64,000 nt of DNA, from positions 6,842 through 70,841 of the forward strand of contig JBAXXQ010000001.1 in NCBI GenBank assembly GCA_037127795.1. The letters are read 5' to 3'. Every line of letters begins with the position of its first letter. Within the stretch, counting starts at the first letter, position 1. Of the stretch, positions 3,301 to 52,118 are shown piece after piece. The notes under the pieces were generated by a model that saw nothing but the letters and a program-made list of their open reading frames with translations, ran no database searches and had not been told where the DNA came from. A program made the translations under genes and the position numbers. The stretch comes from a bacterium (lineage in GTDB: Bacteria > Patescibacteriota > Minisyncoccia > Phycocordibacterales > UBA9973).

Positions 3301-3306
3301 TGTAGC

Positions 3307-3720
3307 ATGGAACAAACAATTTTTGAGCGTATTATACAAGGCGAAATTCCTTGCACAAAAATATATGAAGATGAGATATGTCTTGTTTTTTTGGATATAC
3401 AACCACTCAATCTCGGACATGCACTCGTAATACCAAAAATTCATTCAAGAAATATTTTTGATACCCCAGATGAAACAGTGGCACATCTTTTTGTTATGGC
3501 AAAAAAAGTGGCACTAGCTCTCAAAGAAACAGTAGGTGCAGAAGGTATCAATATTTATATGAATAATGAAGCAGCTGCTGGGCAGATGGTTTTTCATACA
3601 CATATACACGTAATCCCTCGATACAGTACTGATGGATATGTATTATGGCACGGGAAAAAAACATATTCTGAAGAAGAAACAAATAATCTCGCAGAAAAAC
3701 TTACTCACAAACTGCAATAA
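3307..3720 (+). CDS. HIT family (histidine triad) hydrolase
   Basis: 137 aa with the HTHIHVIPR histidine triad. Confidence 0.9.
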   Translation: MEQTIFERIIQGEIPCTKIYEDEICLVFLDIQPLNLGHALVIPKIHSRNIFDTPDETVAHLFVMAKKVALALKETVGAEGINIYMNNEAAAGQMVFHTHIHVIPRYSTDGYVLWHGKKTYSEEETNNLAEKLTHKLQ

Positions 3721-3728
3721 ACAAAAAA

Positions 3729-3760
3729 ATTCCTCCGTCAACTGGCGAAGGAATTTTTAT
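3729..3760 (+). terminator. Rho-independent terminator downstream of the HIT gene
   Basis: The hairpin attcctccg..cgaaggaat is followed by ttttta. Confidence 0.55.
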
Positions 3761-4185
3761 ACCACTTGATATATAGCTATATTAAAATTTTCATAATGCA
3801 TAGCACCTGAATCAAGTCTTTGAAGACCCCAACTCCAAAACCCTTTTTTCCAATAAAGATACCTAACAAAAGGAAAATGAGAAAAATGGTATACGGTTCC
3901 GAAAAAATATACCCTATGTTTCTTCCATTTTTCAGGAATAAATAAAGTATTAGATAAAAGATAATCTAATATACACCCACCTAAAACTTCTTTCTCTTTA
4001 ACCTTTTCAAGTATATCTTTCGAGTATAAACCCTCGCTTTTTATATTATATAATGAGAGATTGTCTTCACCCATTTCTTTATATACAAACAAGACATCTT
4101 CTAATACAGAACAACCATCATAAGGGATGTTGGCCGTACTATTAATCAGAACATCGAGATTAAAAGCATTTTTACTAAGTTTCAT
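3757..4185 (-). CDS. Hypothetical protein
   Basis: A 142-aa ORF with no recognisable motif and an aromatic-rich C-terminus (FWSWGLQRL). Confidence 0.45.
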   Translation of the reverse strand: MKLSKNAFNLDVLINSTANIPYDGCSVLEDVLFVYKEMGEDNLSLYNIKSEGLYSKDILEKVKEKEVLGGCILDYLLSNTLFIPEKWKKHRVYFFGTVYHFSHFPFVRYLYWKKGFWSWGLQRLDSGAMHYENFNIAIYQVV

Positions 4186-4334
4186 TTTACAAATTTTATA
4201 GCATGTTTATATATGCTGGTTACAAAATATTTTTTGAAATATATTATAATTAAAAATAAATGTCAATTTATTAGCCCGATTACTTATTATAAAAGGGCAC
4301 ATAATATTTACTATTACAATACAATTAGATCAAA

Positions 4335-4362
4335 CAAAAAAATCCCGAAAGGGATTTTTTTG
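4335..4362. terminator. Bidirectional hairpin terminator
   Basis: The sequence aaaaaaatcccgaaagggatttttttg has an A-run and a T-run flanking a perfect 5-bp stem with a GAAA loop. It lies downstream of the minus-strand DUF378 gene. Confidence 0.6.
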
Positions 4363-4387
4363 TAGCTACGTACCTGTCGAACAATAT

Positions 4388-4597
4388 TTATTTTGCTTGG
4401 CAATTTGTGCAAGAATTTTTGTGTGTAAACAATTCATACAAAGCTGAAATACCAACAAGGATATATACAATCTTTGAAATAAGCGCTGCTTGACCACCAA
4501 AAATACTTCCTACGTCCCATGAGAACAAACCAACCAAGAGCCAGTTCAAACCACCAACTATAAGAAGAATCCATGCGATTATGTGTACTGTTTTCAT
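4388..4597 (-). CDS. DUF378 small membrane protein
   Basis: 69 aa with two TM helices and the GLNWLLVGLF motif typical of DUF378. Confidence 0.7.
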   Translation of the reverse strand: MKTVHIIAWILLIVGGLNWLLVGLFSWDVGSIFGGQAALISKIVYILVGISALYELFTHKNSCTNCQAK

Positions 4598-4650
4598 AAA
4601 TGTTTTGTGTACTAAAATACTACTAAATCGAGTACCTCTTTAGTATACCA

Positions 4651-9272: not shown

Positions 9273-10475
9273 TTATTTGATAGAATCCATGATTGAGTAC
9301 ATAGGTGAAAGCATGGATACAGCAAAGAATCCAACAGCAGCTCCAATAAATATCATAAGTACTGGCTCTACGATTGTAGAGAGGTTGTTTGTTCTTGCTT
9401 GCACCTCTCCTTCATAAAAGAGTGCTACATCAAAAAGCATTGATTGTAATTTACCTGTCTCTTCTCCTACTGCGATCATCTCTCCCATCATTGGGGGGTA
9501 CAAATTTTCTTTTGCAATAAATACTTTTGCAATTGGCTCTCCTTTTTCAATAGCAATAGCGACCTCTGCAAGAGATGCTTTATAATAACTATTTTGCAAT
9601 ACATCACTAGTAATATCGATAGCGCGATTGATACTTACCCCAGAAGACAAAAGGAGTGATAATGTTCGCGCTGCACGAGCAGTATAGAGCTCACTTAACA
9701 TATCCTTGATAATAGGGGTACGGATTGCAAGCCAGTCAAAGATAATCTTTGTTCTAGGTAGTGTTGCAAGAACTTTTATTGCAAAAACAACTACTAAAAT
9801 AAATACAAATAATAATGCTGTGTGATTTGAAATAAAATCACTCATACCAATGATAAACTGTGTAGACATAGGCAATTTTGCACCAAGCTCCTTAAATGTT
9901 TTGACCAATGTAGGAACTACATACATAAACATCAATATCGCAATAAGTCCGATAGCAGACAATATAATAGCTGGATACATCAACGCACTTTTTACCTTAC
10001 GGTTTATTGCGTAAGTTTTTTCTAGGTTATCCCCCACTTCTTTGAGAGTAATAGGAAGACCTCCAGATTCTTCACCGGCACGCACCATAGCAACAAATAA
10101 TTTTGAAAATACTTTTGGATGCTTTTCCAAAGATTCCGAAAGAGTTCCTCCTTTGTCGATACCTTCTAATATAGAAGTAATAACACTTTTGAATGCCGGC
10201 GAGTGTGTTTGTTTGATAAGTACTTGCAATGCGCGAGAAAGAGAAAGTCCTGCGCCAAGCATCCCTGAAAGATTTTTTGTAAAAAGGATTTTTTCTGCCA
10301 AGGTGACATGTCCAGGTAATATATTTTGCAAAGAAAAACCAATTTTTTGATCTAGTGTATAGGGCACAATATGGTTTGCACGAAGTTCAGATATGGCAAC
10401 AGATCGAGAACTCGCCGCAATCACCCCTTCTATAGTTGCTCCCTCTTTTGTTTTTGCTTTGTATGAGAATTGCAC
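9273..10475 (-). CDS. pilC: Type IV pilus assembly platform protein PilC (GspF family)
   Basis: 400 aa with the duplicated GspF-domain architecture, three TM segments and the typical PilC N-terminus (QFSYKAKTKEG..EGVI). Confidence 0.85.
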   Translation of the reverse strand: MQFSYKAKTKEGATIEGVIAASSRSVAISELRANHIVPYTLDQKIGFSLQNILPGHVTLAEKILFTKNLSGMLGAGLSLSRALQVLIKQTHSPAFKSVITSILEGIDKGGTLSESLEKHPKVFSKLFVAMVRAGEESGGLPITLKEVGDNLEKTYAINRKVKSALMYPAIILSAIGLIAILMFMYVVPTLVKTFKELGAKLPMSTQFIIGMSDFISNHTALLFVFILVVVFAIKVLATLPRTKIIFDWLAIRTPIIKDMLSELYTARAARTLSLLLSSGVSINRAIDITSDVLQNSYYKASLAEVAIAIEKGEPIAKVFIAKENLYPPMMGEMIAVGEETGKLQSMLFDVALFYEGEVQARTNNLSTIVEPVLMIFIGAAVGFFAVSMLSPMYSIMDSIK

Positions 10476-12684: not shown

Positions 12685-14445
12685 CTAACTTCCAATTCTT
12701 TTAATATAAGTAATCTTATCTTTATAAGACTCTACTGTTCGGGTACCAAAACCACCAGCAACAGGATGCCCGCCTCCACCATGAGATTCTGCCAGTTGCC
12801 CATTTCCTATATATATAAGCACATGTCCAAAACCCTTACCTACAGCTTTCCAGCCAACAATATCACCAGGATTAAGTGTTTTACCATTTATTGCTGTATT
12901 TGTTATTCTTGAAGAATATGTTGTTTCTCCCCCATTAAAAATAGAATCTGTTCCTCCGTTAATAAAATCTGTTCCAGCTTTATATCCAGCACAATCCAAA
13001 ACAGTAGTAACAAAACCTGAACAATCTAAGTGGGAAGTTCCGTCAGATTGTACTGATGGATCCTTACCTTTACATATACTATTACCACTACCACAAGAAT
13101 TACTTAAATCAATATCATATGTTATTTTTCCTTGCCAACTCATAGCTATTTTATTTATATTGGAAGATTTACCTGATTTAAGACAAAACACACCGTTTGG
13201 TAGAGACCCAGAGGCTGTAAACTTTGTAGGTGCATTAGTATCACTATCCTGCTTAGTTATAAGTAATTGATCAATTCCTATAGTATTAGAAACCAGTGTT
13301 GGGTTTATAGTATTCAAAACAACGTACGCACTAAGTGCTATAAGAAGTCCTATACCCTTGTCCATCAAGGTACCCTTTACAGAAGCCTTAACTCCAGCAA
13401 CATCAGTAAGCATATACTTGAATCCATCAGACATTATACTTATCACCAAAATAACAACAGCAATACCAATAGCGTATTTAATAATAGTATTTAATAAATC
13501 ACTAAAACTACATATAGCATTAGCGTTTATTTTTTTTGCCAATGTACAAGACAAAGACCCAGGATCGGCAACAATAATAGTAGGGGTAAGGTCGTTTATA
13601 CTGGTACCTTTTACAGAAGAAAGAAGACCATACGCATTTTCCTCAAGATCCTTTGCTTGTGCTTTAATATTATTTCCAAAAACAGAGTTTGCCTGGGTTA
13701 TATTTTTAGGATCATCATATACCCATGGTCCATTATTTAATTTATATGCTTGTCGAAGGTAATATATAGAACCCGGGTTTGCAAATATACCAGGAAGAAT
13801 ACAAGAAAAACTTCCATCGCTATGTAAACAATTTGTTGCAGGAAATATAGGAACAGCCCCTTTATATGCTGCATCATACTGAGTTTTATCTGTTGTTGCT
13901 TGTATTGCAAATTCATATCCAGTTATTCCGTTTGGCAAATTAAGCCCTCCTGTCGCTAATGCGTTTCCATTCGCATCAGCAACGCCTATAGTAAGACTAC
14001 GAAACTCTACGGGTATCAAGGAATCATATTTAATATTTTGTAAAAAAGGTTTGCCTGCATTTTGCAAATCAATACTGGTTAAATCTGGAAACTTATAGAC
14101 ATATAAATAAACAAGAGGCGACGATCCGATCTTTGTATCCAAAACTACATCAAAATCTGTTTTAGGCAAAGGGTTTGATATTTTATATAAAGCATTATTT
14201 CCATAAGTAATATCACTTACACTAAATTGAGATAATAATTTAGTTGTAAATATAACTCTATATGCAGCATTAGGGTTTGTAGAAGTAGGAAGTGGTCCCT
14301 GTGAAAGATCAGGGCACCCTTTGACAGAAATAGTGGTTCTATCTGTTTGAGCAATAGGTACTGCCGTTAAAGAACAATTTGCAAATGCATTACTACCTAA
14401 AAAAAGTGTTGTAAGAAATATAAACGTGTAAAAATATTTTTTCAT
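12685..14445 (-). CDS. NlpC/P60-family peptidoglycan hydrolase with an N-terminal ectodomain and a TM hairpin. It is a candidate VirB1-like cell-wall hydrolase for the T4SS-like locus.
   Basis: The C-terminus has the catalytic Cys motif LDCSGFVTTVL and the His motif GHVLIYIGNG...H, both typical of NlpC/P60. Upstream of the domain lie a signal peptide and two hydrophobic helices (IGIAVVILVISIM, GIGLLIALSAYVVL). Confidence 0.7.
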   Translation of the reverse strand: MKKYFYTFIFLTTLFLGSNAFANCSLTAVPIAQTDRTTISVKGCPDLSQGPLPTSTNPNAAYRVIFTTKLLSQFSVSDITYGNNALYKISNPLPKTDFDVVLDTKIGSSPLVYLYVYKFPDLTSIDLQNAGKPFLQNIKYDSLIPVEFRSLTIGVADANGNALATGGLNLPNGITGYEFAIQATTDKTQYDAAYKGAVPIFPATNCLHSDGSFSCILPGIFANPGSIYYLRQAYKLNNGPWVYDDPKNITQANSVFGNNIKAQAKDLEENAYGLLSSVKGTSINDLTPTIIVADPGSLSCTLAKKINANAICSFSDLLNTIIKYAIGIAVVILVISIMSDGFKYMLTDVAGVKASVKGTLMDKGIGLLIALSAYVVLNTINPTLVSNTIGIDQLLITKQDSDTNAPTKFTASGSLPNGVFCLKSGKSSNINKIAMSWQGKITYDIDLSNSCGSGNSICKGKDPSVQSDGTSHLDCSGFVTTVLDCAGYKAGTDFINGGTDSIFNGGETTYSSRITNTAINGKTLNPGDIVGWKAVGKGFGHVLIYIGNGQLAESHGGGGHPVAGGFGTRTVESYKDKITYIKRIGS

Positions 14446-14448
14446 ATA

Positions 14449-15147
14449 TTAAAAATTAATCTGCGTATTTAATGTTGCCGACTGCCAATCACTATGTGTT
14501 GATTGCATACTACTTGAAAGCTGTACAGAACCACTATCAGAAGGTTTCAAGATAGGTATTTCAAAATTATTGATAGCTGTTGGAGTTTGGTCGCCAAGCT
14601 GAAATGCAATAGCGAGATCTGATAATACATTTTTTGGTATTGAGAAAAAGTACGGCTCAACACGAAGTGTGGTACCTGCATATTTCAAATCAAATGAATC
14701 TGTATAGCCATTATTATAATCAACAAACCCGTCTCGTTTTTCATATGCAACAAGCGCAGGGGTTATTGGTGTAATATCTGCAGTAGCTGAAGCATCAGAA
14801 ATATTGCCTCCAGTGTGTAATGTGACCGCAAGTGACTCTGTATTATTAAGAATATTATGAGTAAATGTCATACTATTTTTATTTACTCCAGAAAAACTAC
14901 TTAATGATGCCCCATTACGAGACCAAGTAAATGTTGTAGTTTTTGGTGTAAAAATACTTGATATAACAACCGCCCTAATCCCCCCTTCATTACTAGGAAG
15001 CGCTTTTCCTTTATAAAAAGGTGGTGCATATGAATCTGTAGATTCCCACAAAATATCTACTCGTGAGTCAGTGGTCGCATCTTGCGCATAACTTACAAAA
15101 GGAGACAGTATGAGAAGAAAAAATACAAGTATAGAAACTTTTTTCAT
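14449..15147 (-). CDS. Secreted hypothetical protein in the T4SS-like operon
   Basis: The internal start MKKVSILVFFLLILSPFVSYAQD gives a signal peptide. The start was reset to 15147, since the track ORF start at 15246 overlaps the VirB4 gene. Confidence 0.5.
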   Translation of the reverse strand: MKKVSILVFFLLILSPFVSYAQDATTDSRVDILWESTDSYAPPFYKGKALPSNEGGIRAVVISSIFTPKTTTFTWSRNGASLSSFSGVNKNSMTFTHNILNNTESLAVTLHTGGNISDASATADITPITPALVAYEKRDGFVDYNNGYTDSFDLKYAGTTLRVEPYFFSIPKNVLSDLAIAFQLGDQTPTAINNFEIPILKPSDSGSVQLSSSMQSTHSDWQSATLNTQINF

Positions 15148-15196
15148 ATCATCAGTATACCATATACAAATACCAAGGCGATATCTAGCCTTGGTA

Positions 15197-17011
15197 TTAT
15201 ATCTTTCTTTGCTCTCTAAATTCTGCTTTTGCTTTTTTGATTGCAAGTACTTGTGATGGATCTGAAGTAATAATCTGGTCTTCGGTATATGAAGAAATGA
15301 TTTTTATTGCCACATGTTTCAACCCTGCAAAGAATATCCCCTCCCCAACACCTGATTCAAGCAACAAATATCGCTCTTCATCAGTCAAATTAAAGGTTTT
15401 TTGCAATACATCCATAGAGCTTGGAGATTGTTTGAGCAAAAGCTGAATCGATGAGTTGGTCACAATCGGTACCCCGTATGGTGATTTCATAAAGTCTCCT
15501 ACGTCTTGGGTAATAGTACAAAGTCCAAGATAGTATTTTCTTCCTCGCTTTGCAATACTGTACAAGAATGATGCAGTATCATCACTTTTCATCATCCACC
15601 ATGCCTCATCCACAATAAGGAGTCTTTTTTTGATTTGGCGACGTACCGCATTCCAAATAAAGTGCGTTACGATATACATAGCGGCCGGCTTGAGATCATC
15701 TTCCATATCTCGTACAGAAAATACAATAAACTTTTTATTTATATCTACATTTGAAGGTTGGTTGATGAAGTTTGACCATGATCCTTTAGTATACTTGGTC
15801 AATCGAGTAAGAATAGACTCACTCCCCTCCATACCAGAAAGTACCATTTCAAAATCAGAAAGCAACGGTGGCTCAACACTCGCAAAATCTGAATTAGGGG
15901 TAATATCTTTCAATGCATATGTTTCTGTAATAGCACGGTCTACAATAGAATCCTCTTCTGGAGTAAGCCCTCCAAGCATAATACGAAACAACCCAACCAG
16001 GTTGATAATATTTGAACGCAATACGTCTTCTGGAGATTCATCTTCACGAGGGACAGGGAGGTCAAATGGATTGATATGATGATCTGAAGAAAGAGAGATA
16101 TTGAAATATCTTCCTCCTACTGCTTCTGCAAGATATTCATACTCTCGCTCTGGGTCAATAACAATAACCTCTGTTTCAAACATGAGCGTGCGAATAATTT
16201 CAAGCTTTGTTGCATATGATTTACCAGATCCAGATTTTGCAAAAATAATTGAGTTATAGTTTTCAAGAGAAAATCTATCAAAAATAACCAAACTAGAGTT
16301 GTGACGATTTACTCCATACAAAATCCCTTTATCATCAGTAAGATCAAAAGATACAAATGGAAAAATACTTGAAAGTGGTTCTGAGTTGAGCTTTTGGGTG
16401 ACATTGAGTGCGTCTTTTGCAAATGGCGATACAGTACGGAAACCGTCTTCTTGTTGAAAAAGTGCTGGTTTTATATAGATCATGCGAGATTCAAGGATAG
16501 ACTTGATCTCATTTTCAGATCTAAAAAGCTCTGTATCATTATCTGCATATACAGTAATGTATAAACCTACATCAAACATCTTTTCCTGTGCTTGGGTAAG
16601 GTTGTCGCGAAGTTCTTCGAGATCTTCTGCGGCAGTATCAAGTACTGGATCACGTACAAGACCTTTGTTCTGACGCTCCATAATCTGACTTTCTACTTCA
16701 GCAATTTTTTTCTGAAAGTGTTTCAAAAGTTCAGTGGTTGGAATCGGGTTTATATAAATAGCAACATCAAAAATTTTGTCGAGGTTGATAATAGGAGTAA
16801 ACCAATTATCAGAGAGATATCGAGGATATGAGAGGACAAAAAACGTACGTGCAATTTTATCCCCCAAGTGTATCCACTTTGGAGTAATCTCAAGTGCTTC
16901 AGGAGCAATAAGATCTTGCAGCTCAAGAGTTGCAGAAGAGTATAAATCGGTCGGCAAAATAGGTAATTGTTTACCTGTTGTTTGTTTTTGTTCACCACCA
17001 AAAATTCCCAT
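15197..17011 (-). CDS. VirB4/TraC/CagE-family conjugal-transfer-type ATPase, ATPase-domain half
   Basis: 604 aa with Walker A FAKSGSGKSYATK, Walker B RLLIVDEAWWMM and VirB4-family similarity throughout. Confidence 0.8.
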   Translation of the reverse strand: MGIFGGEQKQTTGKQLPILPTDLYSSATLELQDLIAPEALEITPKWIHLGDKIARTFFVLSYPRYLSDNWFTPIINLDKIFDVAIYINPIPTTELLKHFQKKIAEVESQIMERQNKGLVRDPVLDTAAEDLEELRDNLTQAQEKMFDVGLYITVYADNDTELFRSENEIKSILESRMIYIKPALFQQEDGFRTVSPFAKDALNVTQKLNSEPLSSIFPFVSFDLTDDKGILYGVNRHNSSLVIFDRFSLENYNSIIFAKSGSGKSYATKLEIIRTLMFETEVIVIDPEREYEYLAEAVGGRYFNISLSSDHHINPFDLPVPREDESPEDVLRSNIINLVGLFRIMLGGLTPEEDSIVDRAITETYALKDITPNSDFASVEPPLLSDFEMVLSGMEGSESILTRLTKYTKGSWSNFINQPSNVDINKKFIVFSVRDMEDDLKPAAMYIVTHFIWNAVRRQIKKRLLIVDEAWWMMKSDDTASFLYSIAKRGRKYYLGLCTITQDVGDFMKSPYGVPIVTNSSIQLLLKQSPSSMDVLQKTFNLTDEERYLLLESGVGEGIFFAGLKHVAIKIISSYTEDQIITSDPSQVLAIKKAKAEFREQRKI

Positions 17012-17047
17012 GATATAAGTATAGCATATGAATATGACGAGATGATA

Positions 17048-17692
17048 TTATTGTGTCGGCATTTTTACATTACTACTTCCTTCTCCTGGATTAAATGTTT
17101 TATACAAAAGTTCTATAAGTTCTTCTGTACCAAGACTTGCAGTACGGACTCCGAGTCTTCCTAAGCCTTGCTCTACAACAGAAACGCGTTGCTCGAGCTG
17201 TGTGCGTTGTTCTTCAAAATCTTTGAGCATTTGTGTTTGTGTATTATTACTACCAAACAATCCAGTAATTTTCCCCATGAAACCACTATTAGTACTGGCA
17301 AGTGGTGGAACATACGGTACCACTACATAAAATGATTTGCGCATAATATTCACATTTTCATTAAAAGAACGAATAAATTCAATATACTCACGTGTTTGTG
17401 TTTGCAAAAGTGGTTCTTCCTGTTCTTTGAGTCTTGCATCAAGTAATAACAGATATGGGCGTATGTCGTATCGACGAGATTGGATCAAAATTTGTATTGG
17501 AAAATCAAGTCCATTGAGGAACCCTTGAAATTGCATCAGTACAGACTTTTGCTCTTCATACGATTTGAGGCTGAGGTTGATAGAAGAAACAAGCACTGCT
17601 TTACAGAGCGAGTCGTCTTTGAGCACAATAACACCGTCTCGAACTTCTTTGACGGGTACAAACTCTTGAGTTGGTGATGATTTTACTGCCAT
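17048..17692 (-). CDS. VirB4 N-terminal domain encoded as a separate ORF
   Basis: 214 aa with FVPVKEVRDGVIVLKDDSLCKAVLVSSINLSLKSYEEQKSVLMQFQGFLNGLDFPIQILIQSRRYD, which resembles the N-terminal region of Gram-positive VirB4 (TraE/Orf16-type). It is in the same frame as 15197-17011 and separated from it by a single TAA plus 12 codons. Confidence 0.6.
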   Translation of the reverse strand: MAVKSSPTQEFVPVKEVRDGVIVLKDDSLCKAVLVSSINLSLKSYEEQKSVLMQFQGFLNGLDFPIQILIQSRRYDIRPYLLLLDARLKEQEEPLLQTQTREYIEFIRSFNENVNIMRKSFYVVVPYVPPLASTNSGFMGKITGLFGSNNTQTQMLKDFEEQRTQLEQRVSVVEQGLGRLGVRTASLGTEELIELLYKTFNPGEGSSNVKMPTQ

Positions 17693-17693
17693 A

Positions 17694-18266
17694 TTATTTT
17701 CTCGTATCTATTATATCAAGACTTCGTGATAATGTTTTGAGTTTATCCTCTGTAAGTGATGGACGAAGTACTCGATCAGTCTTGGGTGCAAGCGCACGAT
17801 CAGTTCTCGTATCCACAGGAGCTTGCTGTTGTGCACCTTGCTGCGCAAATCGATTAACATTTTGTTTTTGGTGTAAATACATATTTTGATTTACCATTGC
17901 CATATCTCCCTGTACTGGCGTATTGTCGCGAGCTGTATCTATCCCCCACGATTCAGGAGTTTGTGCTATTGCGGCTTTCTTTTTTTGCCAAATATATAAT
18001 CGTGATCGAAAATAATATTTTACAAATGATTCTACAAAGTTTATAAATGGCTTGTCGTTATATTTATAAAACGCAAGCGCCGCACCAAACCCTCCAAACG
18101 CTAAACCAAATACTGCAGAAAAAGGAAATGGTAATAATTTAAAACAAAGATATAATCCTCCTGTCCCACCAGCAAGATACGCAAACTGTTTAAAAGTAAA
18201 CGGTCCAAAAATTTTATCTTCAATGTCAATAAATTGTGGGACTTTGAATTGCATATATACAATCAT
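17694..18266 (-). CDS. PrgI-family (VirB3-like) small membrane protein
   Basis: The N-terminus FKVPQFIDIEDKIFGPFTFKQFAYLAGG followed by two TM helices matches the PrgI/VirB3-analog pattern (KVP..I...EDKI.G.T.RQ..YL). It sits immediately upstream of VirB4, the canonical gene order. Confidence 0.55.
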   Translation of the reverse strand: MIVYMQFKVPQFIDIEDKIFGPFTFKQFAYLAGGTGGLYLCFKLLPFPFSAVFGLAFGGFGAALAFYKYNDKPFINFVESFVKYYFRSRLYIWQKKKAAIAQTPESWGIDTARDNTPVQGDMAMVNQNMYLHQKQNVNRFAQQGAQQQAPVDTRTDRALAPKTDRVLRPSLTEDKLKTLSRSLDIIDTRK

Positions 18267-18859: not shown

Positions 18860-21800
18860 TTATTTACCCCCCTCTTTAGCCTTATCTTGTATTTTTTTCT
18901 CAAGAGCTTCTCTTTTATCCCAAATATTTTTTAAATCATTATGCTTATCTTCTGCAGCCTTCTTTGCTATTGAAGCATTAGCAAAAGCTTCTTTATCTGA
19001 TTCTGCTGGACTATCTATATTCATAAACACTTTTTCTGCTTTTTTATGTTCAGCATTAGCAACTTGAACATCAGAATATGCTTTTGCAACGATTTTTTCA
19101 AAATCATCCTTTTTCTCCTTATCTTTGTCTTTATACTTTTCATTATACTCTTCATCAGGCACGTCCTCACCAACAAGGGTCTTTTTAACCTTTTCGTCTA
19201 ATTTTCGTAATTGCGCCTCAAGACTATTCTTACCTTTATTCTTACCATAATCTCTAGTATATGAATCAGCAGCTTTTTTCATAGCATCTGTTTCAGCAGG
19301 AGCAAGATATTTTGACCATGTTCGCTTTTCTCCATCTGGTTTAAAGTATAGAGAATTTTGCTTCATATCTTCTGCATAGTCATTCTTCATTGCAGCAGAA
19401 AAATCTTTAACACTGCCAATTTTTCCATATTTTTCAACATCATCTTTTTGTTTCTTTTCAAACAATGTCTTAACTTTATCTTTAAAGATTTTTTCTTCTT
19501 CATCACTGAGAGACTGCTTACCACCCTTGATTTTTAGTGTGTTAGCATCAATTCTACTTGCCTGTACTTTGTTTTGCTCTTTTATAGTAGACACCAATTC
19601 ACTCAACTTAGTGTTATGTGTTTCCAAAAGTTGCATTTTTTGTGCTTTTTCCTCTTTTGAATACAAACCAGCATTAAGCCCTGTTTTAATTTCTTTTATA
19701 GCAGCCTCAGCTTGCTTTTTCTGATCTGTAGCATTTTTCTTTGTGGCTTCAGCTGTTTTATATTGCTCATCTTGCTCTTTAGTAAATGCAGCAATAGCTT
19801 CTTTTTCAGCTTTTCTTCCTTGATGTTTTTCCCAAGCCATTTTTGCACCAACATCATCAAGATAATCAAATGTGCTAGATTTTTCAATCTTTTCTTTATT
19901 TTGTTTTTCTTTACGCTCTTTCATTCCTTTGAAGCCACCTTCAAAATCTTTTTTACCAAAACCAACCTTTTCAGCAAATTTATCATTATAATTCATACCA
20001 ACAGACCCCCCCACCTTACTAAGACCTGACATAATAGTGCTATTATTTCTAAAATCAAAACTAGCTGTCTGTGATTTATTAAGCGCATTATTTGCCTTTC
20101 TTGCAAAATAGTTATTATCAGCATTTGAGCTTGCCCATTGCCCTAGTCTTGACTTACCAATAGACCTTCCTGCTACACCACTCAATCTTGAACCCGCAGC
20201 TGCAATACCAGACGCCGCACCCATAGTACCCACAGTAAGCGCTGCTCCACCAACAAAACCTGCAGCCTTTGACATCATAGCCTGTGCTTGTTTTCCAAAA
20301 TCACCAGCAAAAGAAGTAATAATTACTTTCCCTTTATCCAAAAGACCCTTTACAATAAGCAATGGTATTGCTATCCAAAGGACTGTATATGTAAATGTAT
20401 GGTTTGTGCCATCAAGGTGTGATGTATAAAACGGTGTCTGCATTATCTTTATCACCAGATAAAAATATATAACAGTAACTGGAGCAAGGATAGCATAATT
20501 CATCAATTCACCAAGCCATTTTGTCCAATGCAAAGAATCAAGTTTTGATAAGAATGGTATCTCTCGAGACATAAATGCAACCGGAGAAAATATCATAGCA
20601 ACATATAACCCAATCACACGACCAATAAATATAAATCCTATACTCCAAAAAATAAGCCCTGTACCAAATGCAATAAAGGTACAAATAAGCACCACAAGAG
20701 TAAAGTAGCCCGCATATTCTTCTGGAGAATCCTTTTTAATTTGTGATAAATCTTTTGCTGTACCAAATGTAGCAGCACCACCATTTGTTTGAGCACTCAC
20801 CTGATCTTTTGTAGCTTGTGCTTTTGATGCCTCATCTGTGCCAGATAATGCATTATTAAATACTCGTTGCGGATCAAAGCTTTGTACAACAATAGCAGAG
20901 ACCCCTTTATATCCAGAATCACTATTACCATTATTTGCAGCACCACTAGACCCGACAGTACCTGCGTTATTACCCTGTACGCTAATTTGTGCGTAAAATA
21001 CTCGCGCAACAATATTTGAAATATCTATAACACCACGAGTAAGAAGCAAGCTAAAGTTTATTAAAATAGCATTAACAATAATTGCAGAAACAAGCTTCTT
21101 CAAATCTTTACCGCCAAAAATAGTAGATAATCCTGCATATATCAAAAGAATAATAAAGAATATATTTGCAATATCTCGCACTGTCGTCCATGCACTCGCT
21201 ACAAATGGTTGTAAATATGCAGTAGAACTAATTGAATACCCTAAAAAGAAGTCAAAAATATTCCCCATTAAATATGCAAAAAATGCAGCCCCTCTAAAAA
21301 GTACATAGTAGAAAAAGAGTGCAATACAACCCATGAATGTACCACTACTCATCCAGGTAAGACCACAAGAAGGCAATACATCATTACCACTAGCGGCAAC
21401 ACTAGCACCAGCAGCAGCTACTGCTTGTGTCATATCTGTAGCATTTTGATCAATGGCAGCCTGAGCGTTTGTAGTAGGAATAGTATATGGAATTGGTTTA
21501 CCAATTCTATAATAATACCCCTCAACAACCTTTGTGGTTTTTGTGTTTGACCATGAGGCACATTTTATTCCTGCTGTAGGACTTGCACTATTCCATAATT
21601 TTTTAACATCCTTTGGGTTATTTTTTGCATCAGTATCATCAGAAACAACAATACTATAAGTACCTTGTTTATATGTATACACCGAGGGGTCTTGCTCTGG
21701 ACAATACCAAAGACCCATATACACCTGCTGACCAGGAGCCAAGTGTCCTGTTTGAACAATTGTTTTTACTGTTTCTGATTGATTGGTCGCATTACTATCA

Positions 21801-22363
21801 TTTTTGGGTTTTCCATTTGAATCAGTTGAGTTATCGGTAAAATATTTATAAAAACTAGATGTTGGCATTTTTTGCGCAATAAGCGCATCATCAGCACTAC
21901 TTGTAGAATGTTCTTGAGGCAATATTATAGGTTGCCCAAAAATATTACCATTAGTATCTTCTAGTGTTGCAACAAAAGATGCTGTATCTTTACTTGGTCC
22001 ATAATAACTAAAATCTGCATTACCATCAGAAAATACATGTCTCCAACCATTTTTTATATCTGTCCATTTATTAGTAAAAATCAAATTTGCCTGTATAGTA
22101 AGCTCGCTTGCACCAATAGTAGTATCTTTTGAATCAAATTTATTTGGATCAGCTGGTGGTTTAAAATCAGTAGAAACCACACTCATACTTTTTATACCAG
22201 AATTCACATTATCAAAAAGATCAGAACCATATCCAGTTAGAGTAGGGCCACCAGCAGGCCAATTACCCGCAAATGCAGTACTAGCAGGTACTACAATACC
22301 TATAATAAAAATACTTAGGAGAACGGAAGTAATTATTTTTTTCCAAGCAAATGCTTTTTTCAC
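18860..22363 (-). CDS. Giant polytopic membrane protein, VirB6/TrbL-like, with an N-terminal secreted domain and a C-terminal K/E-rich coiled-coil tail
   Basis: 1167 aa with a signal peptide, a roughly 330-aa ectodomain, at least six hydrophobic helices between roughly residues 340 and 700, then about 450 aa of low-complexity KEKQNKEKIEK-type charged repeats. Confidence 0.5.
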   Translation of the reverse strand: MKKAFAWKKIITSVLLSIFIIGIVVPASTAFAGNWPAGGPTLTGYGSDLFDNVNSGIKSMSVVSTDFKPPADPNKFDSKDTTIGASELTIQANLIFTNKWTDIKNGWRHVFSDGNADFSYYGPSKDTASFVATLEDTNGNIFGQPIILPQEHSTSSADDALIAQKMPTSSFYKYFTDNSTDSNGKPKNDSNATNQSETVKTIVQTGHLAPGQQVYMGLWYCPEQDPSVYTYKQGTYSIVVSDDTDAKNNPKDVKKLWNSASPTAGIKCASWSNTKTTKVVEGYYYRIGKPIPYTIPTTNAQAAIDQNATDMTQAVAAAGASVAASGNDVLPSCGLTWMSSGTFMGCIALFFYYVLFRGAAFFAYLMGNIFDFFLGYSISSTAYLQPFVASAWTTVRDIANIFFIILLIYAGLSTIFGGKDLKKLVSAIIVNAILINFSLLLTRGVIDISNIVARVFYAQISVQGNNAGTVGSSGAANNGNSDSGYKGVSAIVVQSFDPQRVFNNALSGTDEASKAQATKDQVSAQTNGGAATFGTAKDLSQIKKDSPEEYAGYFTLVVLICTFIAFGTGLIFWSIGFIFIGRVIGLYVAMIFSPVAFMSREIPFLSKLDSLHWTKWLGELMNYAILAPVTVIYFYLVIKIMQTPFYTSHLDGTNHTFTYTVLWIAIPLLIVKGLLDKGKVIITSFAGDFGKQAQAMMSKAAGFVGGAALTVGTMGAASGIAAAGSRLSGVAGRSIGKSRLGQWASSNADNNYFARKANNALNKSQTASFDFRNNSTIMSGLSKVGGSVGMNYNDKFAEKVGFGKKDFEGGFKGMKERKEKQNKEKIEKSSTFDYLDDVGAKMAWEKHQGRKAEKEAIAAFTKEQDEQYKTAEATKKNATDQKKQAEAAIKEIKTGLNAGLYSKEEKAQKMQLLETHNTKLSELVSTIKEQNKVQASRIDANTLKIKGGKQSLSDEEEKIFKDKVKTLFEKKQKDDVEKYGKIGSVKDFSAAMKNDYAEDMKQNSLYFKPDGEKRTWSKYLAPAETDAMKKAADSYTRDYGKNKGKNSLEAQLRKLDEKVKKTLVGEDVPDEEYNEKYKDKDKEKKDDFEKIVAKAYSDVQVANAEHKKAEKVFMNIDSPAESDKEAFANASIAKKAAEDKHNDLKNIWDKREALEKKIQDKAKEGGK

Positions 22364-23188: not shown

Positions 23189-26100
23189 CTAATCAGCACA
23201 GAGTGCTACGCTTGATGTTTGTAATGATCTATATTTTAAATTAGGATCCAATGTTTCTGCGATAGTACTTCCTCCTCCGTAATTTCTCAAAAGAGTACCT
23301 GCTTGTATTTGCGCATATGGTCCTGGGTCAGGGAATTGATATACAGAGCTGTCGTGTGGAGGGCTAAATGTAGTACCCAACAAAGATGATTTTGAAGGAT
23401 TAATATCTTTTGTATAGAACCCTTCGAAAGGAACACTTACTGTATTGATTGATATTCTTCGAGGTTTTCCTGTTGTTGTATCAATATCATTATTATCAGA
23501 AATAGTAATAACATATCGCACGTTTTTTGGAATATATTCTTCTATTGAGTGAGTACATACATTATCTGTTTCACCTATATGTGTCTTACTATTATTACCA
23601 CGACCAGAATCTTGAGAATATTCATCACATTTTCTATATGTTTCAAATAATGAAGTAAGACTAGTGTCAGTTATAGTTGGTATCGTAGTAACATCTTTAT
23701 CATACAACCCGATAATATTAGGATCTTTTCCTCCTGAATCTATATCAATAGTAGTATCAGGATAATTAAAATTCCACCCATCGGTCAAATAACTAAGCCA
23801 AGTCAAACCACCAGCACTCATTACCTGAGTTCCACAACTTCCACTTGGATCAACATTAGGATTACAACTAGGGTTACATGATGGATCATTATTTAAATAT
23901 GCAGTATCTTGTGTGCTTGGATCTGTCCCCCAAGAAAAACTTGTCATACATGCTCGTGGTGCACAATTTGGATCATAATTTGGATCTGATGGGCCAGCAC
24001 AAATAGTAGTACCAGAAACATTAGTAATATCTCCTCCACTAGTGAATGTATTTGAAGATGAAGCATCAGGAAGCCATGGCATATCTATATAGTTTGTAAT
24101 ACCCGATACGTGCAACATAGATAATGCAGCAGCACTACCAGGATTGACAATAGCATTCATTAAATAAATATTACTTTGGAAGATAGTATCAATAGTTTGT
24201 CCACTTATATATAATGCATCTCCGTATCTAGGTCTTGAAGCTTTAGCGGCAACATTTGAACCTTCTAGTTTTATTTGAGGATCTTTATATACCGCAAGAG
24301 GGAATCCTCCATAGGGTGCTAGTTCAGCAGCCTGATCTGCTCTATAATAATCAGCATATACCTGCCTATCTACATGTACATGATAATTCCCTGCAGCAAC
24401 AGTCTTTATTGGTGTTAATGTAATAGAGGTAGTTGGTTGCACACTTTTTGCCAAAAGATTTGGCCCCATAAGACAACTTACCGCATTAGATTTTGCGATA
24501 AAACCAATTTTTGATACAGGTTTTACTGTTGGCGGGGTACATGTTGCATTAGCTATACCACCGGCAGTATTACAAAGATTTTGATAAAAATCATATTGTG
24601 CAAATTGTGATTGGATTACCGTAGAATCACTGTTTGCATCAGACTCTTGAGCAGGGGCTCCAGCTGTTGAAAGATTGATAGCATAATTTTGATCAAGGCA
24701 ACTTTGATTTACGGTAATACCTTGTGCTGCCTGTGTTGCAATATGACGAGCACGTGCAACTTTTACAATAGCAAGTACTTGATTATAAATATCTTGCATT
24801 TGCGCTGCGGTAGATTCCGCCTTATCTATTTCAGTACCATAGGCGTCAGCATTTGCTTGGAGCTGATTGTTGTATTCAATCAAATTAAAAGATTCATTAT
24901 ACATATCACGAACTTGTCCACGAACAAATTCCGGAGAATTATTCTTATTTGGATCAGTAAGTACATATTGATCCATAAGTGTATCGAGACCATATCGAGT
25001 ATTTATTTCATTGGTATATGAAGAAAACCATTGCTCAAATGCATCCGCAACATCAGATCCAGGGGTAGGGCTTGCCTCTGTTTTTGTTACTGTATGAGAA
25101 CAGCTAGTGTTAAATTGCCCAGCAGATCCTAAAATACCGCCAACAGATGAACCTGTTGAACCTCCAATATACCCCCCTGCAAGCGAACCGACAGCACTTG
25201 TTAATGCTCCACTATTGAGCAAACTAGAACCAATATTACATGCAATATCCAAAAATCCCTCATTGTTTGGCTCTTGTACTTGGTATGTGTATGGAGGGTG
25301 AATAGGATATATATTAAAAACCTGATTTCTATAAGGAATTACACTATTTGTAACAGGGTCTTGAAAACCATATCTATCTGTAGCAAATGATTCATTTGTA
25401 TAATTAGGTGCTGGGCCAGGTCCTTGATATCCAGAACCAGAAGATAATGCTTTATTAAAATTATCATTACTATCTCCTGCATATACAGACCATGAAGGAT
25501 TTGGTCCAGGGAGACAATAATCAAGTGCTCCAAGATTTGCAACCATTTTTTTGTTTGCGTTAATAGAATCACTTGCTTTATTTATATAGTCATACTGTGT
25601 TTTAAGAATTGCGGCAAGTTGTGTCGTATGTGAAATATCAAAATTAGCTCCTACATCTGCACCGTTAGCATAACTAATTTCTGCAGTTGCTGTATCTACA
25701 CCATCAGTAGCTAAAGGTAAGCTATTACTAAACGGACTTGGAGACCATTTATTCGGTGTTGTAGGTGGATTGTACGGATAATCCTGACTTCCTTCTCCAT
25801 AATGAGCAAGTCCTTTATTGAGCCAATCATTAAGCTTTGCATCTACAATCCCCGCAATAACATCACTTATTTTATTTGCTGTCTCGAGTTGATGAATTTG
25901 TGTAGTAGTAATAGCGTTTGCCTGATTTGCAATAGCATCTCCAGGAGTAACTACACGAAATTGTGTGCATACTTTTTCTCCATTTTCATCTGTTTGATTA
26001 CTATATTTTGCACACACTTTTTGACTAAAATACCCATGTCCTTGATTGAGTTCATTTTGTGCATTATTTTTTTGATTACTATAATCACGATTAATATAGT

Positions 26101-27043
26101 CTATAGTACTGAGGTATTGCCCCATAGCATTTCCTTGGTTGTAAGTACTATTGAGCCATCCAGTCCACCCACCAGTCATTATATTATTAGCATCTTTATT
26201 ATACGTTTTACCAAACTGAGTATTTGAAAGATTACTCAAAAAATGAGGTGTCTTACCTGTTATCTCACTAGTAATAAGATTGTTTACTTGTTGATTAACA
26301 GCATTATTTAAAGTGGGATCATTACTACTTACTGTAAGGTTTGCAGGTTTTAAGTATTTATACAAAATACTATGATACATATTTTGAAAATATGATGACT
26401 GATCAGTAACATAAAATGGCGATCCTGCCATACCCGTATTTATATAACCCAATACAATACTAGACATTTTCGCTAATGATTTTCGAAGAGTATATTTTGC
26501 TAGAGCATCTGTACAAGTCTCACGCTTGTCTTGATTTGCAGCAGTGGTCTTGGCAATATCAACAGCAGCCTTACCGTTACTATTTATAGCATCTACTATA
26601 TTTGTTTCAGAAACAATCACAGGTTGTTGTATACTCGACCCTGTACTTTTTACCGAAGCATCTTTTTCATTTGATGCTTTTTTAAAAGCATCAGCTTGTA
26701 ATCTATTTTTACAAGAGGTACCACAAAAAAGTCCTCCATGTGCAACAGGAATAACAACACCCGCACCTGCTATATATTGATTAGTAACACCTCCAAAAAG
26801 CGCACTACTTGCCTTAGAGACTTCTTTATTTGCAAATGCAGTAACACTACCAACCCCTTGAGTAATCCAATCATCAGAAGATTTACCTCCAGCAACCTGA
26901 CAATTAAGCAAAGCCCCTGTCATACCAGTAACATTTATATTTGATCCTTGAAAAGACTGTGCATAAGTTTGAGAAATAGGTAAAAATAAAACACATCCTA
27001 GAAAAATGGTGAGTATTGTTTTTTTGCCAAAAAAATATTTCAT
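23189..27043 (-). CDS. Giant secreted surface protein, a candidate adhesin or substrate of the T4SS-like locus
   Basis: About 1283 aa from the internal start MKYFFGKKTILTIFLGCVLFLPISQTYAQS, which is a signal peptide. The protein is rich in N, T, S, G and Y with many Cys pairs. The start at 27043 abuts the upstream gene stop at 27045. Confidence 0.55.
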   Translation of the reverse strand: MKYFFGKKTILTIFLGCVLFLPISQTYAQSFQGSNINVTGMTGALLNCQVAGGKSSDDWITQGVGSVTAFANKEVSKASSALFGGVTNQYIAGAGVVIPVAHGGLFCGTSCKNRLQADAFKKASNEKDASVKSTGSSIQQPVIVSETNIVDAINSNGKAAVDIAKTTAANQDKRETCTDALAKYTLRKSLAKMSSIVLGYINTGMAGSPFYVTDQSSYFQNMYHSILYKYLKPANLTVSSNDPTLNNAVNQQVNNLITSEITGKTPHFLSNLSNTQFGKTYNKDANNIMTGGWTGWLNSTYNQGNAMGQYLSTIDYINRDYSNQKNNAQNELNQGHGYFSQKVCAKYSNQTDENGEKVCTQFRVVTPGDAIANQANAITTTQIHQLETANKISDVIAGIVDAKLNDWLNKGLAHYGEGSQDYPYNPPTTPNKWSPSPFSNSLPLATDGVDTATAEISYANGADVGANFDISHTTQLAAILKTQYDYINKASDSINANKKMVANLGALDYCLPGPNPSWSVYAGDSNDNFNKALSSGSGYQGPGPAPNYTNESFATDRYGFQDPVTNSVIPYRNQVFNIYPIHPPYTYQVQEPNNEGFLDIACNIGSSLLNSGALTSAVGSLAGGYIGGSTGSSVGGILGSAGQFNTSCSHTVTKTEASPTPGSDVADAFEQWFSSYTNEINTRYGLDTLMDQYVLTDPNKNNSPEFVRGQVRDMYNESFNLIEYNNQLQANADAYGTEIDKAESTAAQMQDIYNQVLAIVKVARARHIATQAAQGITVNQSCLDQNYAINLSTAGAPAQESDANSDSTVIQSQFAQYDFYQNLCNTAGGIANATCTPPTVKPVSKIGFIAKSNAVSCLMGPNLLAKSVQPTTSITLTPIKTVAAGNYHVHVDRQVYADYYRADQAAELAPYGGFPLAVYKDPQIKLEGSNVAAKASRPRYGDALYISGQTIDTIFQSNIYLMNAIVNPGSAAALSMLHVSGITNYIDMPWLPDASSSNTFTSGGDITNVSGTTICAGPSDPNYDPNCAPRACMTSFSWGTDPSTQDTAYLNNDPSCNPSCNPNVDPSGSCGTQVMSAGGLTWLSYLTDGWNFNYPDTTIDIDSGGKDPNIIGLYDKDVTTIPTITDTSLTSLFETYRKCDEYSQDSGRGNNSKTHIGETDNVCTHSIEEYIPKNVRYVITISDNNDIDTTTGKPRRISINTVSVPFEGFYTKDINPSKSSLLGTTFSPPHDSSVYQFPDPGPYAQIQAGTLLRNYGGGSTIAETLDPNLKYRSLQTSSVALCAD

Positions 27044-27044
27044 A

Positions 27045-27950
27045 CTATTGTTGTAGTGTATCATATTTTGCTATAGCTTGGTTAAGGTTATCCATAGCAG
27101 TATTCAAAAGAGTAGTAGCATTACTATATTCTCCTATAGCAGTTGCACCAAGCAGGTCATCATTTTTTATATTTGCAGCAGCAACAAGTGTATCTCCAAT
27201 AGTTTTTATACCGTTTACATAATCAAGATGCTCTCTCGCAATAGATATTGGAACCTTTATTTGTATAAGTTTTTGAGCAATTACTTGATACTCTTTGCCA
27301 TTTTGCGCAACACTATCGAGCTTACTATAATCATTATTTTGTACTGCATCAGACAAGATAGTCGTTTCGTCTTGGTCAAAATGTACTTTTGCTATAACTT
27401 TTTGAAAATTTATCGCATAACTATGTATATTATTTATAGTAGAAGGCAATAATATTACATCATTTATTGTATATAATTTCTTTTGTACAGGTTTAACAAT
27501 ATTTTGCACGAGCGGTGTAGTTACATCTTGTAATGTACCAGCATCAACATTACCGACTTGGTCCAAGATACTGGTCGTAGTGTAAATACCATATGCGAGT
27601 TTGTCTGTACCAGAGGCGGTAGAAAGATCGGTACCACCCGCAGCTTTATTTTCAGCCCTTTTTTGCATTACAATATCCCTATTTGATATACCATTCGTAA
27701 CAGCAACAGTAGGATCAAGCCCCCAGAGACGCTCTTCCCAATCTGGAATACCGTTATTATTACTATCTATTGCAATAATATCACCAAATGTTTGTTCTTT
27801 TTGGGTAGAAAGAACTTTAGGTCTATAGCTAAAGATTTTTTGTAAAATACCTGTTTGCACAACAATAATAACTAACAAAATACTACCTGCAACAATAGCA
27901 ACTCGCTTAAACTGTTTTGAAGGTTTTGGTATATTAGAAAACTGTTTCAT
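27045..27950 (-). CDS. N-terminally membrane-anchored hypothetical protein, first gene of the block
   Basis: 301 aa with the TM segment VAIVAGSILLVIIVVQTGIL and then a soluble domain. Confidence 0.5.
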   Translation of the reverse strand: MKQFSNIPKPSKQFKRVAIVAGSILLVIIVVQTGILQKIFSYRPKVLSTQKEQTFGDIIAIDSNNNGIPDWEERLWGLDPTVAVTNGISNRDIVMQKRAENKAAGGTDLSTASGTDKLAYGIYTTTSILDQVGNVDAGTLQDVTTPLVQNIVKPVQKKLYTINDVILLPSTINNIHSYAINFQKVIAKVHFDQDETTILSDAVQNNDYSKLDSVAQNGKEYQVIAQKLIQIKVPISIAREHLDYVNGIKTIGDTLVAAANIKNDDLLGATAIGEYSNATTLLNTAMDNLNQAIAKYDTLQQ

Positions 27951-27962: not shown

Positions 27963-28757
27963 TCATATTGATTTTACAATACCTTTCCATTGTATCAATG
28001 AAAGTGTCTCAGGGCGAGCTTTTATATCCACACCAATAGAAACAAGTACATCCTCAACAGCTTTTTTTGAACCAAACATTTCAGAGAGACTAGTACTTAT
28101 CTGTTTTCGTTTTGTGCCAAACGCCTTTTTAACTATAGAAAAAAAGGTTTTTTCATCTACATCAGCAAAAAAATCTCTTGAAATACTTGAAATACATAAA
28201 ATAGCTGAATCAACCTTTGGTGGTGGGACAAACGCACCTTTTGGTACTTTTGATATAATTTTTGGTTTCCCATATACACTCACTGCAATAGATAAAATAC
28301 TTTCTTTATCCGTGTCACGAGACACGATACGTTCTGCAACCTCTTTCTGCATCAAAAGTACCATTATTTCAGGTTGAAAATGTGCACTAAGGAACTGCTC
28401 TATAATAGCCCCTGTTATATAGTATGGAATATTTGCTACTAATTTGTATTTTTTGCCGTATGTTTTAAGTGTTTCTGGATCAAAACGCAAAATATCCCCT
28501 GATATAATAGAAAGTGTTTTGTTTTGTAGCTCTTTTTCAAATTTTTCTTCCAAAAGCCCTATAAGACTATTATCTTTTTCAATAGCAACAACGTGCGCAC
28601 CAGTAGCAAGAAGTGCTTCAGTAAGTACCCCTTTTCCCGGACCAATTTCAACAATAATATCACCAGGTGATACTTGCGCAGACTCAACCATTTCACGAAG
28701 TGCTTTAGGGCTATTGAGCCAATGCTGTCCTAAACTTTTTTTGGGAGCTATATACAT
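27963..28757 (-). CDS. rsmA: 16S rRNA (adenine1518/1519-N6)-dimethyltransferase
   Basis: Contains KKSLGQHWL, the KsgA signature SLGQHFL, and the SAM motif VEIGPGKGVLT. Confidence 0.9.
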   Translation of the reverse strand: MYIAPKKSLGQHWLNSPKALREMVESAQVSPGDIIVEIGPGKGVLTEALLATGAHVVAIEKDNSLIGLLEEKFEKELQNKTLSIISGDILRFDPETLKTYGKKYKLVANIPYYITGAIIEQFLSAHFQPEIMVLLMQKEVAERIVSRDTDKESILSIAVSVYGKPKIISKVPKGAFVPPPKVDSAILCISSISRDFFADVDEKTFFSIVKKAFGTKRKQISTSLSEMFGSKKAVEDVLVSIGVDIKARPETLSLIQWKGIVKSI

Positions 28758-31126: not shown

Positions 31127-31200
31127 ACATATAGTATACACTACGACCATTACTATTGACTTTTTTTGTTTTTTATGAGACTATATAAAAAACATTTAGT

Positions 31201-50217: not shown

Positions 50218-50256
50218 AGATATAATATAAGCCCCTTATATAGTAATTGTATTTTG

Positions 50257-50327
50257 TGCGGCTACAGGGAATCGAACCCTGGTCTCGTCCTTGGCAAGGA
50301 CGCATTCTACCACTAAACCATAACCGC
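50257..50327 (-). tRNA. tRNA-Gly (anticodon GCC)
   Basis: Cloverleaf found by hand. The acceptor stem is GCGGTTA/TAGCCGC, the anticodon stem is CGTCC/GGACG, the loop is TTGCCAA and the T-loop is TTCGATT. No CCA is encoded. Confidence 0.8.
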
Positions 50328-50388
50328 AACAGAAATTAGTATAGATTATTTTTACTTTTTTGTAAATAAATGCTACATTTAGCGTACT

Positions 50389-50460
50389 GCACCTATGGTG
50401 AAATGGATATCACAGCGGTCTTCGGAACCGTTATTCTGGGTTCGAGTCCTGGTAGGTGCA
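50389..50460 (+). tRNA. tRNA-Arg (anticodon TCG)
   Basis: The acceptor stem is GCACCTA/TAGGTGC, the D-stem is GTGA/TCAC, the anticodon stem is GCGGT/ACCGT, the loop is CTTCGGA and the T-loop is TTCGAGT. The T-stem has two G-U pairs. Confidence 0.75.
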
Positions 50461-50470
50461 CAGCGTTTAG

Positions 50471-50498: not shown

Positions 50499-50500
50499 GC

Positions 50501-52105: not shown

Positions 52106-52118
52106 TATACCCACCACT

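Follow-up and report, generated by a model that had tools for sequence, protein, structure and literature searches.

The virB4 locus

The 64,000-nucleotide stretch of DNA analyzed here (hereafter the window; positions 6,842 to 70,841 of the forward strand of contig JBAXXQ010000001.1, GenBank assembly GCA_037127795.1) derives from a member of the Patescibacteria and contains a cluster of type IV secretion system (T4SS) genes in which the sequence corresponding to the ATPase VirB4 is divided between two open reading frames (ORFs), a shorter N-terminal piece (ORF A) and a longer piece that includes the ATPase domain (ORF B). The window is gene-dense, with a G+C content of about 36%, long ORFs under the standard genetic code, and a predominance of genes on the minus strand. 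The divided locus consists of the following elements, listed from its upstream end:

17048..17692, minus strand: ORF A, 214 amino acids (aa), TrsD-like or "TraC-like" (PF26593), corresponding to approximately the first 200 residues of the full-length VirB4 N-terminal domain
17048..17050, minus strand: TAA stop codon of ORF A, a genuine gene end that is conserved in relatives
17012..17047, minus strand: intergenic spacer of 36 nucleotides (nt), containing a promoter-like element
17018..17026, minus strand: TGcTATACT, an extended -10-like box whose end lies 6 nt upstream of the ORF B ATG
15197..17011, minus strand: ORF B, 604 aa, the VirB4 ATPase proper, with the second half of the N-terminal domain (approximately residues 1-223) and the C-terminal ATPase domain

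ORF A starts with an ATG and runs from 17692 to its TAA at 17050..17048; 12 sense codons (17047..17012) separate this stop from the ATG of ORF B at 17011. The two starts are 681 nt (3 x 227) apart, which places both ORFs in a common frame. Neither an in-frame ATG, GTG or TTG nor a Shine-Dalgarno motif occurs in the 36-nt spacer, and the junction site is free of N runs and homopolymers. An earlier note, written from the letters of the sequence alone, had described these coordinates, lengths, the common frame, the TAA with its 12 codons and the separate ATG exactly, and had correctly dismissed UGA recoding; it offered an inactivating mutation, a sequencing or assembly error, and a real split into two polypeptides as possible readings without choosing among them. 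Since the split is conserved in relatives, as detailed below, the last of these is strongly supported and the other two are refuted.

ORF A and ORF B as complementary parts of VirB4

The Walker A motif GSGKS (residues 261-265; 16231..16217) and the Walker B motif LIVDEAW (residues 465-471; 15619..15599) of ORF B lie in a P-loop domain of the TraG/HerA type, and Pfam matches were obtained to P-loop_TraG (PF19044, E 8e-26), AAA_10, and DUF87. Residues 224-582 match the crystallized VirB4 C-terminal domain (PDB 4ag5, E 5e-42); TrwK of R388 was also matched. Against the NCBIfam model of the CD1110-family VirB4 (NF045971), ORF B scored 381.6 bits, above the cut-off of 325, over profile positions 182-733 of 752. 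By this score, by its Walker motifs, and by its location close to a VirB3/PrgI homolog in a T4SS cluster, ORF B belongs to the VirB4 family; what it lacks is a complete N-terminal domain (approximately 400 residues) in a single polypeptide, as profile positions 1-181 are absent. The missing N-terminal positions are supplied by ORF A, which matches positions 2-118 of the same profile; the two ORFs cover one CD1110 VirB4 profile collinearly and without overlap (2-118 and 182-733), and a complete N-terminal domain is found in the pair and in neither ORF alone. The initial description of ORF B as a Walker A/B ATPase and of ORF A as VirB4-N-terminal-like is borne out by the motifs, by Pfam, by the 4ag5 match and by NCBIfam. 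The best 120 homologs of ORF B in database searches measure 587-631 aa and share 82-100% identity with it; MEI6022244.1 is a homolog at 100% identity.

ORF A also matched the N-terminal part of the NCBIfam models VirB4_plasma (101-233) and TIGR00929 VirB4_CagE (3-172). A Pfam scan of ORF A returned no family, using a copy that may not hold PF26593; this "TraC-like" family is precomputed for every listed ORF A homolog, including an ortholog with 98% identity. Database searches yielded more than 7,800 significant homologs of ORF A, the best 120 of which are all stand-alone proteins of 208-226 aa with 64-98% identity; the homologs are named as VirB4 components or TraC family proteins and come from sources labeled Paceibacterota, Nomurabacteria or Patescibacteria. 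A search of the PDB sequences with a profile of ORF A homologs gave noise only; a Foldseek search of the PDB with the AlphaFold2 model of ORF A returned TrwK/VirB4 chains for all of its top 14 matches, with probabilities of 0.8-1.0. Over the same set of species ORF A evolves faster than ORF B, with 64-70% vs. 82-86% identity.

Conservation of the split in related genomes

The comparison of fused and split forms that the earlier note had proposed was carried out on 66 further loci from species-representative genomes, and the junction was measured in each of the 62 loci with both genes. A stop codon ends ORF A in every one of the 62 (TAA in 37, TAG in 22, TGA in 3) and is followed by ORF B, at identities down to 53%; this outcome argues against pseudogenization. 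The spacer between the two genes ranges from -4 to 434 nt, with a median of 36 nt, and the relative frames 0, 1 and 2 occur 21, 17 and 24 times, in a random distribution. The gene order PrgI – ORF A – ORF B is maintained on contigs with a 98%-identical ORF A, and also in a relative with 66% identity, where ORF B is in a different frame. In one Paceibacterota locus (L053) the two genes are divergently arranged and 114 nt apart, with virB4 at 2097-3887 on the minus strand and the TrsD-like gene at 4001-4636 on the plus strand, which shows that separate promoters can serve the two genes.

Very close relatives are found in three independent assemblies in ENA, with proteins that are 98-99.7% identical to those of the window; in the junction alignment the end of ORF A (ACACAATAA) and its TAA are identical to the window, and yet the spacer measures 61 nt instead of 36 nt and ORF B is in the +1 frame. 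The earlier note had treated the shared frame as meaningful; since these near-identical relatives retain the TAA with a spacer that is 25 nt longer, and since the relative frames across the 62 loci are distributed 21/17/24, a common frame with 12 open codons between the ORFs is, by sequence comparison, no more than chance would produce, and the sharing of the frame is a coincidence. The 61-nt spacers of the three assemblies (L001:6646-6706, L002:6646-6706, and L003:3509-3569) contain a perfect 13-base-pair (bp) hairpin, ATATGAATATCAC-CTCC-GTGATATTCATAT, that lies just ahead of the -10 box; relative to them, the window spacer (17012-17047) carries a 25-nt deletion that removes the left arm of this hairpin. 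The hairpin might serve in attenuation or mark the end of an RNA.

Both ORFs are under strong purifying selection. The ratio of nonsynonymous to synonymous substitution rates (dN/dS), calculated by the Nei-Gojobori method against the closest relatives at dS values of 0.5-2, was 0.03-0.07 for ORF A and 0.005-0.02 for ORF B. A pseudogene would be expected to combine a disruption that is absent in relatives with relaxed selection; here the split is present in all 62 loci, and dN/dS is at most 0.07.

Fused orthologs and the position of the break

When the ORF A alignment was used as a profile against 1.84 billion cluster representatives, 2,893 hits were obtained; the best 150 of these measure 146-443 aa, with the exception of two proteins of 898 and 797 aa. 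In both, an A-like N-terminus is continued by a B-like remainder that shares 48% and 54% identity, respectively, with ORF B. The 797-aa fused protein belongs to Candidatus Colwellbacteria, a sister clade in which such proteins are numerous; of the top 120 hits to this Colwellbacteria query, 118 are 775-807 aa long and contain both PF26593 and PF19044. In one genome of this clade the fused gene follows prgI and lies near dnaA. The AlphaFold model of the fused ortholog (predicted local distance difference test score, pLDDT, 67) aligned with full-length TrwK/VirB4 of R388 at E 3.5e-25, with a template modeling (TM) score of 0.62 both ways, over about 800-900 columns.

An apparent 600-aa split form within the Colwellbacteria clade (P0411, L074:1282-3470) was traced to a gene call that restarted after a scaffold N gap in a fused gene. 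The two apparent exceptions of approximately 600 aa (P0411 and P0507) were not counted as evidence for recurrent fission; the N-gap artifact provides a useful contrast to the genuine split.

In the joint alignment with the fused VirB4 of Colwellbacteria, residues 1-211 of the fused protein correspond to ORF A and residues ~230-791 to ORF B, and the break falls into a variable linker of ~20 residues downstream of a conserved YNP motif. The earlier note had placed the break between the N-terminal domain and the ATPase domain. As judged from the alignments, it is inside the VirB4 N-terminal domain and not at this boundary, because ORF B retains ~220 residues of non-ATPase N-terminal region ahead of its ATPase domain, and the N-terminal domain of TrwK spans residues 15-400 (PMC9259494); ORF A represents approximately the first half of the domain. 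Compared to fused VirB4 proteins (the ~790-aa Colwellbacteria form, the CD1110 family, and TrwK in PDB 7O41 and 8RTD), ORF A and ORF B together are collinear over the full length; the difference is that here two polypeptides are encoded, and in place of the link between them stand a stop codon, a non-coding spacer that contains the promoter-like box, and a new start codon.

A promoter-like box in the spacer

The proposal to look for a ribosome-binding site or a leaderless start before the ATG at 17011 led to the extended -10 box 6 nt upstream; a Shine-Dalgarno motif was not found there. Among 59 non-redundant related loci, 46 carry a hexamer of the form TA[TC]A[ACT]T at a distance of 6-11 nt from the start of ORF B on its upstream side, in spacers that are otherwise unconserved; the case for a spacer promoter rests on this positional conservation. 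The same arrangement recurs elsewhere in the window, where TATA[AC]T is found 6-7 nt before the start of 11 of 62 genes, compared to 0.17 expected (P ~9e-17); the starts are 681(-), 1640(-), 6507(-), 12665(-), 17011(-), 22363(-), 29164(-), 34408(+), 56036(-), 58597(-), and 61058(+). Shine-Dalgarno-like motifs (GGAG or GAGG) precede only two of the 62 window genes. Hexamer position and scarcity of Shine-Dalgarno motifs together form a leaderless signature, from which we infer that virB4 probably has its own promoter in the spacer and a leaderless mRNA, or one with a leader of 0-3 nt. For this lineage of Patescibacteria in general, the pattern suggests widespread leaderless mRNAs at operon heads combined with coupling within operons; a literature search on leaderless mRNAs in Patescibacteria or the candidate phyla radiation returned nothing relevant. 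Many other genes of the window begin 1-13 nt past the preceding stop codon.

A probable bipartite VirB4 and its alternatives

We consider it highly likely, with a probability of about 90%, that the locus encodes a functional, naturally bipartite VirB4 of a patescibacterial T4SS (Paceibacteria/Nomurabacteria-like), specified by two genes that are separated by a true stop codon and a non-coding spacer. The two polypeptides would associate non-covalently to form a complete VirB4 protomer, and ORF B would contribute the hexameric motor ring. In R388, VirB3 is wrapped around VirB4's N-terminal domain (PMC9259494); by analogy, the ORF A module may be membrane-proximal and in contact with PrgI/VirB3. 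ORF A is probably translationally coupled to prgI just upstream, and the extended -10 promoter in the spacer probably gives ORF B a transcript of its own as well; ATPase and N-terminal module could in this way be made in different amounts.

Several results weigh against this interpretation or parts of it. The TrsD/TraD model NF041427 gave ORF A 20.5 bits (E 3.4e-4, positions 21-99 of 201) against a cut-off of 200, and an hhalign comparison of the ORF A profile with pSK41 TrsD remained barely above noise (E 0.012, probability 3.6%). The AlphaFold2 model of ORF A is of medium confidence (pLDDT 67), and its Foldseek matches are weak by E-value (2e-3 to 5e-2). In two loci of Candidatus Kaiserbacteria (L064 and L067), a TrsD-like ORF with 47-48% identity has no VirB4 ATPase within 4 kb on either side, and ORF A need therefore not always be encoded together with ORF B. 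Ten more distant loci are without the -10 box, and a sigma-70 scan requiring both the -35 and the -10 hexamer did not call the spacer site.

The unlinked Kaiserbacteria genes are compatible with the alternative that ORF A has descended from a VirB4 N-terminus and now acts as an independent T4SS accessory, for example an assembly factor or a regulator, without structurally complementing ORF B. The faster evolution of ORF A (64-70% vs. 82-86% identity) would fit such a role, as would the approximately one quarter of patescibacterial TrsD genes that, according to PMC12102498, do not adjoin virB4. Nonetheless this alternative appears improbable, as ORF A supplies exactly the segment that ORF B lacks, both together cover the VirB4 profile with neither overlap nor gap, in the fused orthologs a single chain with the fold of a full-length VirB4 contains both parts, and the order PrgI – A – B mirrors that of VirB3 and VirB4.

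The remaining alternatives concern the stop codon itself. A common frame with 12 open codons between the ORFs, and the existence of fused orthologs in another clade of Patescibacteria, are what a recent nonsense mutation would leave behind if the TAA had inactivated a formerly fused VirB4 in a T4SS that is now dead or decaying; the shared frame and stop-free spacer, found in this genome only, would likewise permit programmed read-through of the TAA, with some fused A-B protein produced besides the two separate products. Both expectations are at odds with the relatives: an equivalent stop occurs in 62 of 62 loci down to 53% identity, with random frames and spacers of -4 to 434 nt, and the 98-99.7%-identical relatives combine the same TAA with a 61-nt spacer and the +1 frame. 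The low dN/dS of both ORFs, and the conservation of the ORF B start (MGIFGG) as well as of the promoter-like box, speak further against an inactivating mutation, which is hardly credible. Read-through fares little better and is judged very improbable; in one locus the genes overlap, in another they lie on opposite strands, a conserved read-through context or structure was not found, and the spacer codons are not conserved as protein. That the stop results from a sequencing or assembly error is conceivable for a metagenome-assembled genome, the more so as a true artifact of this type was seen in the N run within the fused gene of L074; an identical stop in independent assemblies from other samples, thousands of stand-alone homologs from NCBI, JGI, ENA and Logan, and a site without N runs or homopolymers reduce its probability to almost nil. 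Taken together, the junctions, frames and dN/dS values of the relatives exclude that the TAA arose by recent nonsense mutation or faulty base calling, and also that its read-through is conserved.

If VirB4 is bipartite, as favored here, the split could be more than neutral fission: the ATPase might use its own leaderless transcript to set the ratio of module to motor, and T4SS assembly in epibionts would then be a regulated, modular step. This extension is speculative and we regard it as unlikely. Should only some VirB4 subunits contact VirB3, as in R388, the choice of the ATPase subunits to be anchored to PrgI could lie with a free N-terminal module, and under such a modular assembly the fused (Colwellbacteria) and split clades would reflect two assembly logics.

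Comparison to published two-gene systems

ORF A is, by sequence, a remote homolog of TrsD and not a member of this family as defined by the NF041427 model; given the bit score and the near-noise hhalign result reported above, membership in the NCBIfam family is not claimed. In a functional sense it resembles TrsD/TraD in its size (approximately 200-230 aa) and in its position directly upstream of an ATPase that begins at the same position in the VirB4 fold. The comparison set for this split architecture consists of TrsD/TrsE of pSK41 and pGO1 and TraD/TraE of pIP501 (NF041427). In staphylococcal pSK41, trsD (227 aa) and trsE (672 aa) are separated by a 14-nt spacer, compared to 214 and 604 aa here; residues 47-571 of ORF B align with residues 50-617 of pSK41 TrsE (E 3e-33, 23% identity), which indicates that both ATPases begin at the same VirB4 fold point. 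Whereas the locus of the window is chromosomal, pSK41 specifies a plasmid conjugation apparatus that includes a relaxase and a coupling protein; neither of these was recognized among the 12 neighboring ORFs that were scanned (9273-31150). A tblastn search of plasmids with ORF A returned 272 records at 25-29% identity, mainly from Bacillota and haloarchaea; in the three records that were opened, from Pontibacillus (with an ATPase annotated as CD1110 family), from Clostridium perfringens pJFP838A (with PrgI upstream), and from a Haloprofundus plasmid, the match lies in a hypothetical protein of 274-349 aa that is directly followed by a VirB4-like ATPase of 621-641 aa.

The two-gene form is already known, and the window contains an ordinary instance of it. 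According to a recent survey (Quinonero-Coronel et al., 2025, Microb Genom, PMC12102498), TrsD is a remote homolog of the N-terminus of VirB4 and, among the T4SS components recovered in Patescibacteria, the most abundant, with 2,272 homologs of which 1,664 are associated with virB4; the TrsD homolog of Southlakia epibionticum ML1 is listed there as essential. The very widespread patescibacterial TrsD and VirB4 pair is a small VirB4-N-terminus homolog beside virB4, following PrgI/VirB3, in a monoderm-type (MPF_FATA-like) T4SS, as is the case here; the window genes belong by sequence to this set, and nothing essential differs. Term searches of the survey found no account of the pair as the product of fission at a constant linker, of a sister clade with fused proteins, or of a promoter within the spacer; the contrast between fused and split clades and the spacer promoter are modest refinements, and little else is new.

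S. epibionticum requires its T4SS cluster for epibiotic growth (Wang et al., 2023, PMC10633639), and in Patescibacteria few systems besides the T4SS have been shown to be indispensable for an epibiotic lifestyle (PMC10633639, PMC12102498); a VirB4 miscalled as a pseudogene would therefore misjudge the biology of the organism. The T4SS-like machine of this genome should be scored as intact and not as decaying, and annotation pipelines should treat a PF26593 protein of ~210 aa followed by a VirB4 of ~600 aa as one functional unit.

Gene neighborhood

The features flanking the two ORFs are as follows:

17694..18266, minus strand: prgI, VirB3-like small membrane protein of 190 aa (Pfam PF12666 PrgI, E 1e-8)
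15170..15197, minus strand: hairpin of 10 bp, ATACCAAGGC-N8-GCCTTGGTAT, whose first base coincides with the final base of the ORF B stop codon
14449..15147, minus strand: next gene, 232 aa, with a signal-peptide-like N-terminus (MKKVSILVFFLLILSPFVSYAQ) and TATACT 6 nt before its ATG at 15147
12685-14445: NlpC/P60 and T4SS-pilin-like protein (Pfam scan)

The TAA of prgI (17696..17694) ends 1 nt before the ATG of ORF A. At the other end of the locus, the hairpin at 15170..15197 is a possible transcript end, although the T-run that follows it is weak. Together with the TATACT before the ATG of the next gene (15145-15159), this hairpin suggests that virB4 may be transcribed as a separate unit. The mechanically called start of the next gene, a TTG at 15246 that would overlap virB4 by 50 nt, is probably wrong; the orthologous gene is called as 232 aa in the three closely related assemblies.

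No Pfam or NCBIfam family matched the large ORFs next to the T4SS genes, which lie at 18860-22363 (1167 aa) and 23189-27064 (1291 aa). Also near the T4SS genes, and on the minus strand, are genes for a PilC/GspF-type type IV pilus platform protein (9273-10475), a KsgA/RsmA methyltransferase (27963-28757), and a PcrA/UvrD helicase (29189-31150). Farther along the window, a cluster of five tRNA genes (Gly-GCC, Arg-TCG, Pro-TGG, Gly-TCC, and Gly-CCC) occupies 50256-52190.

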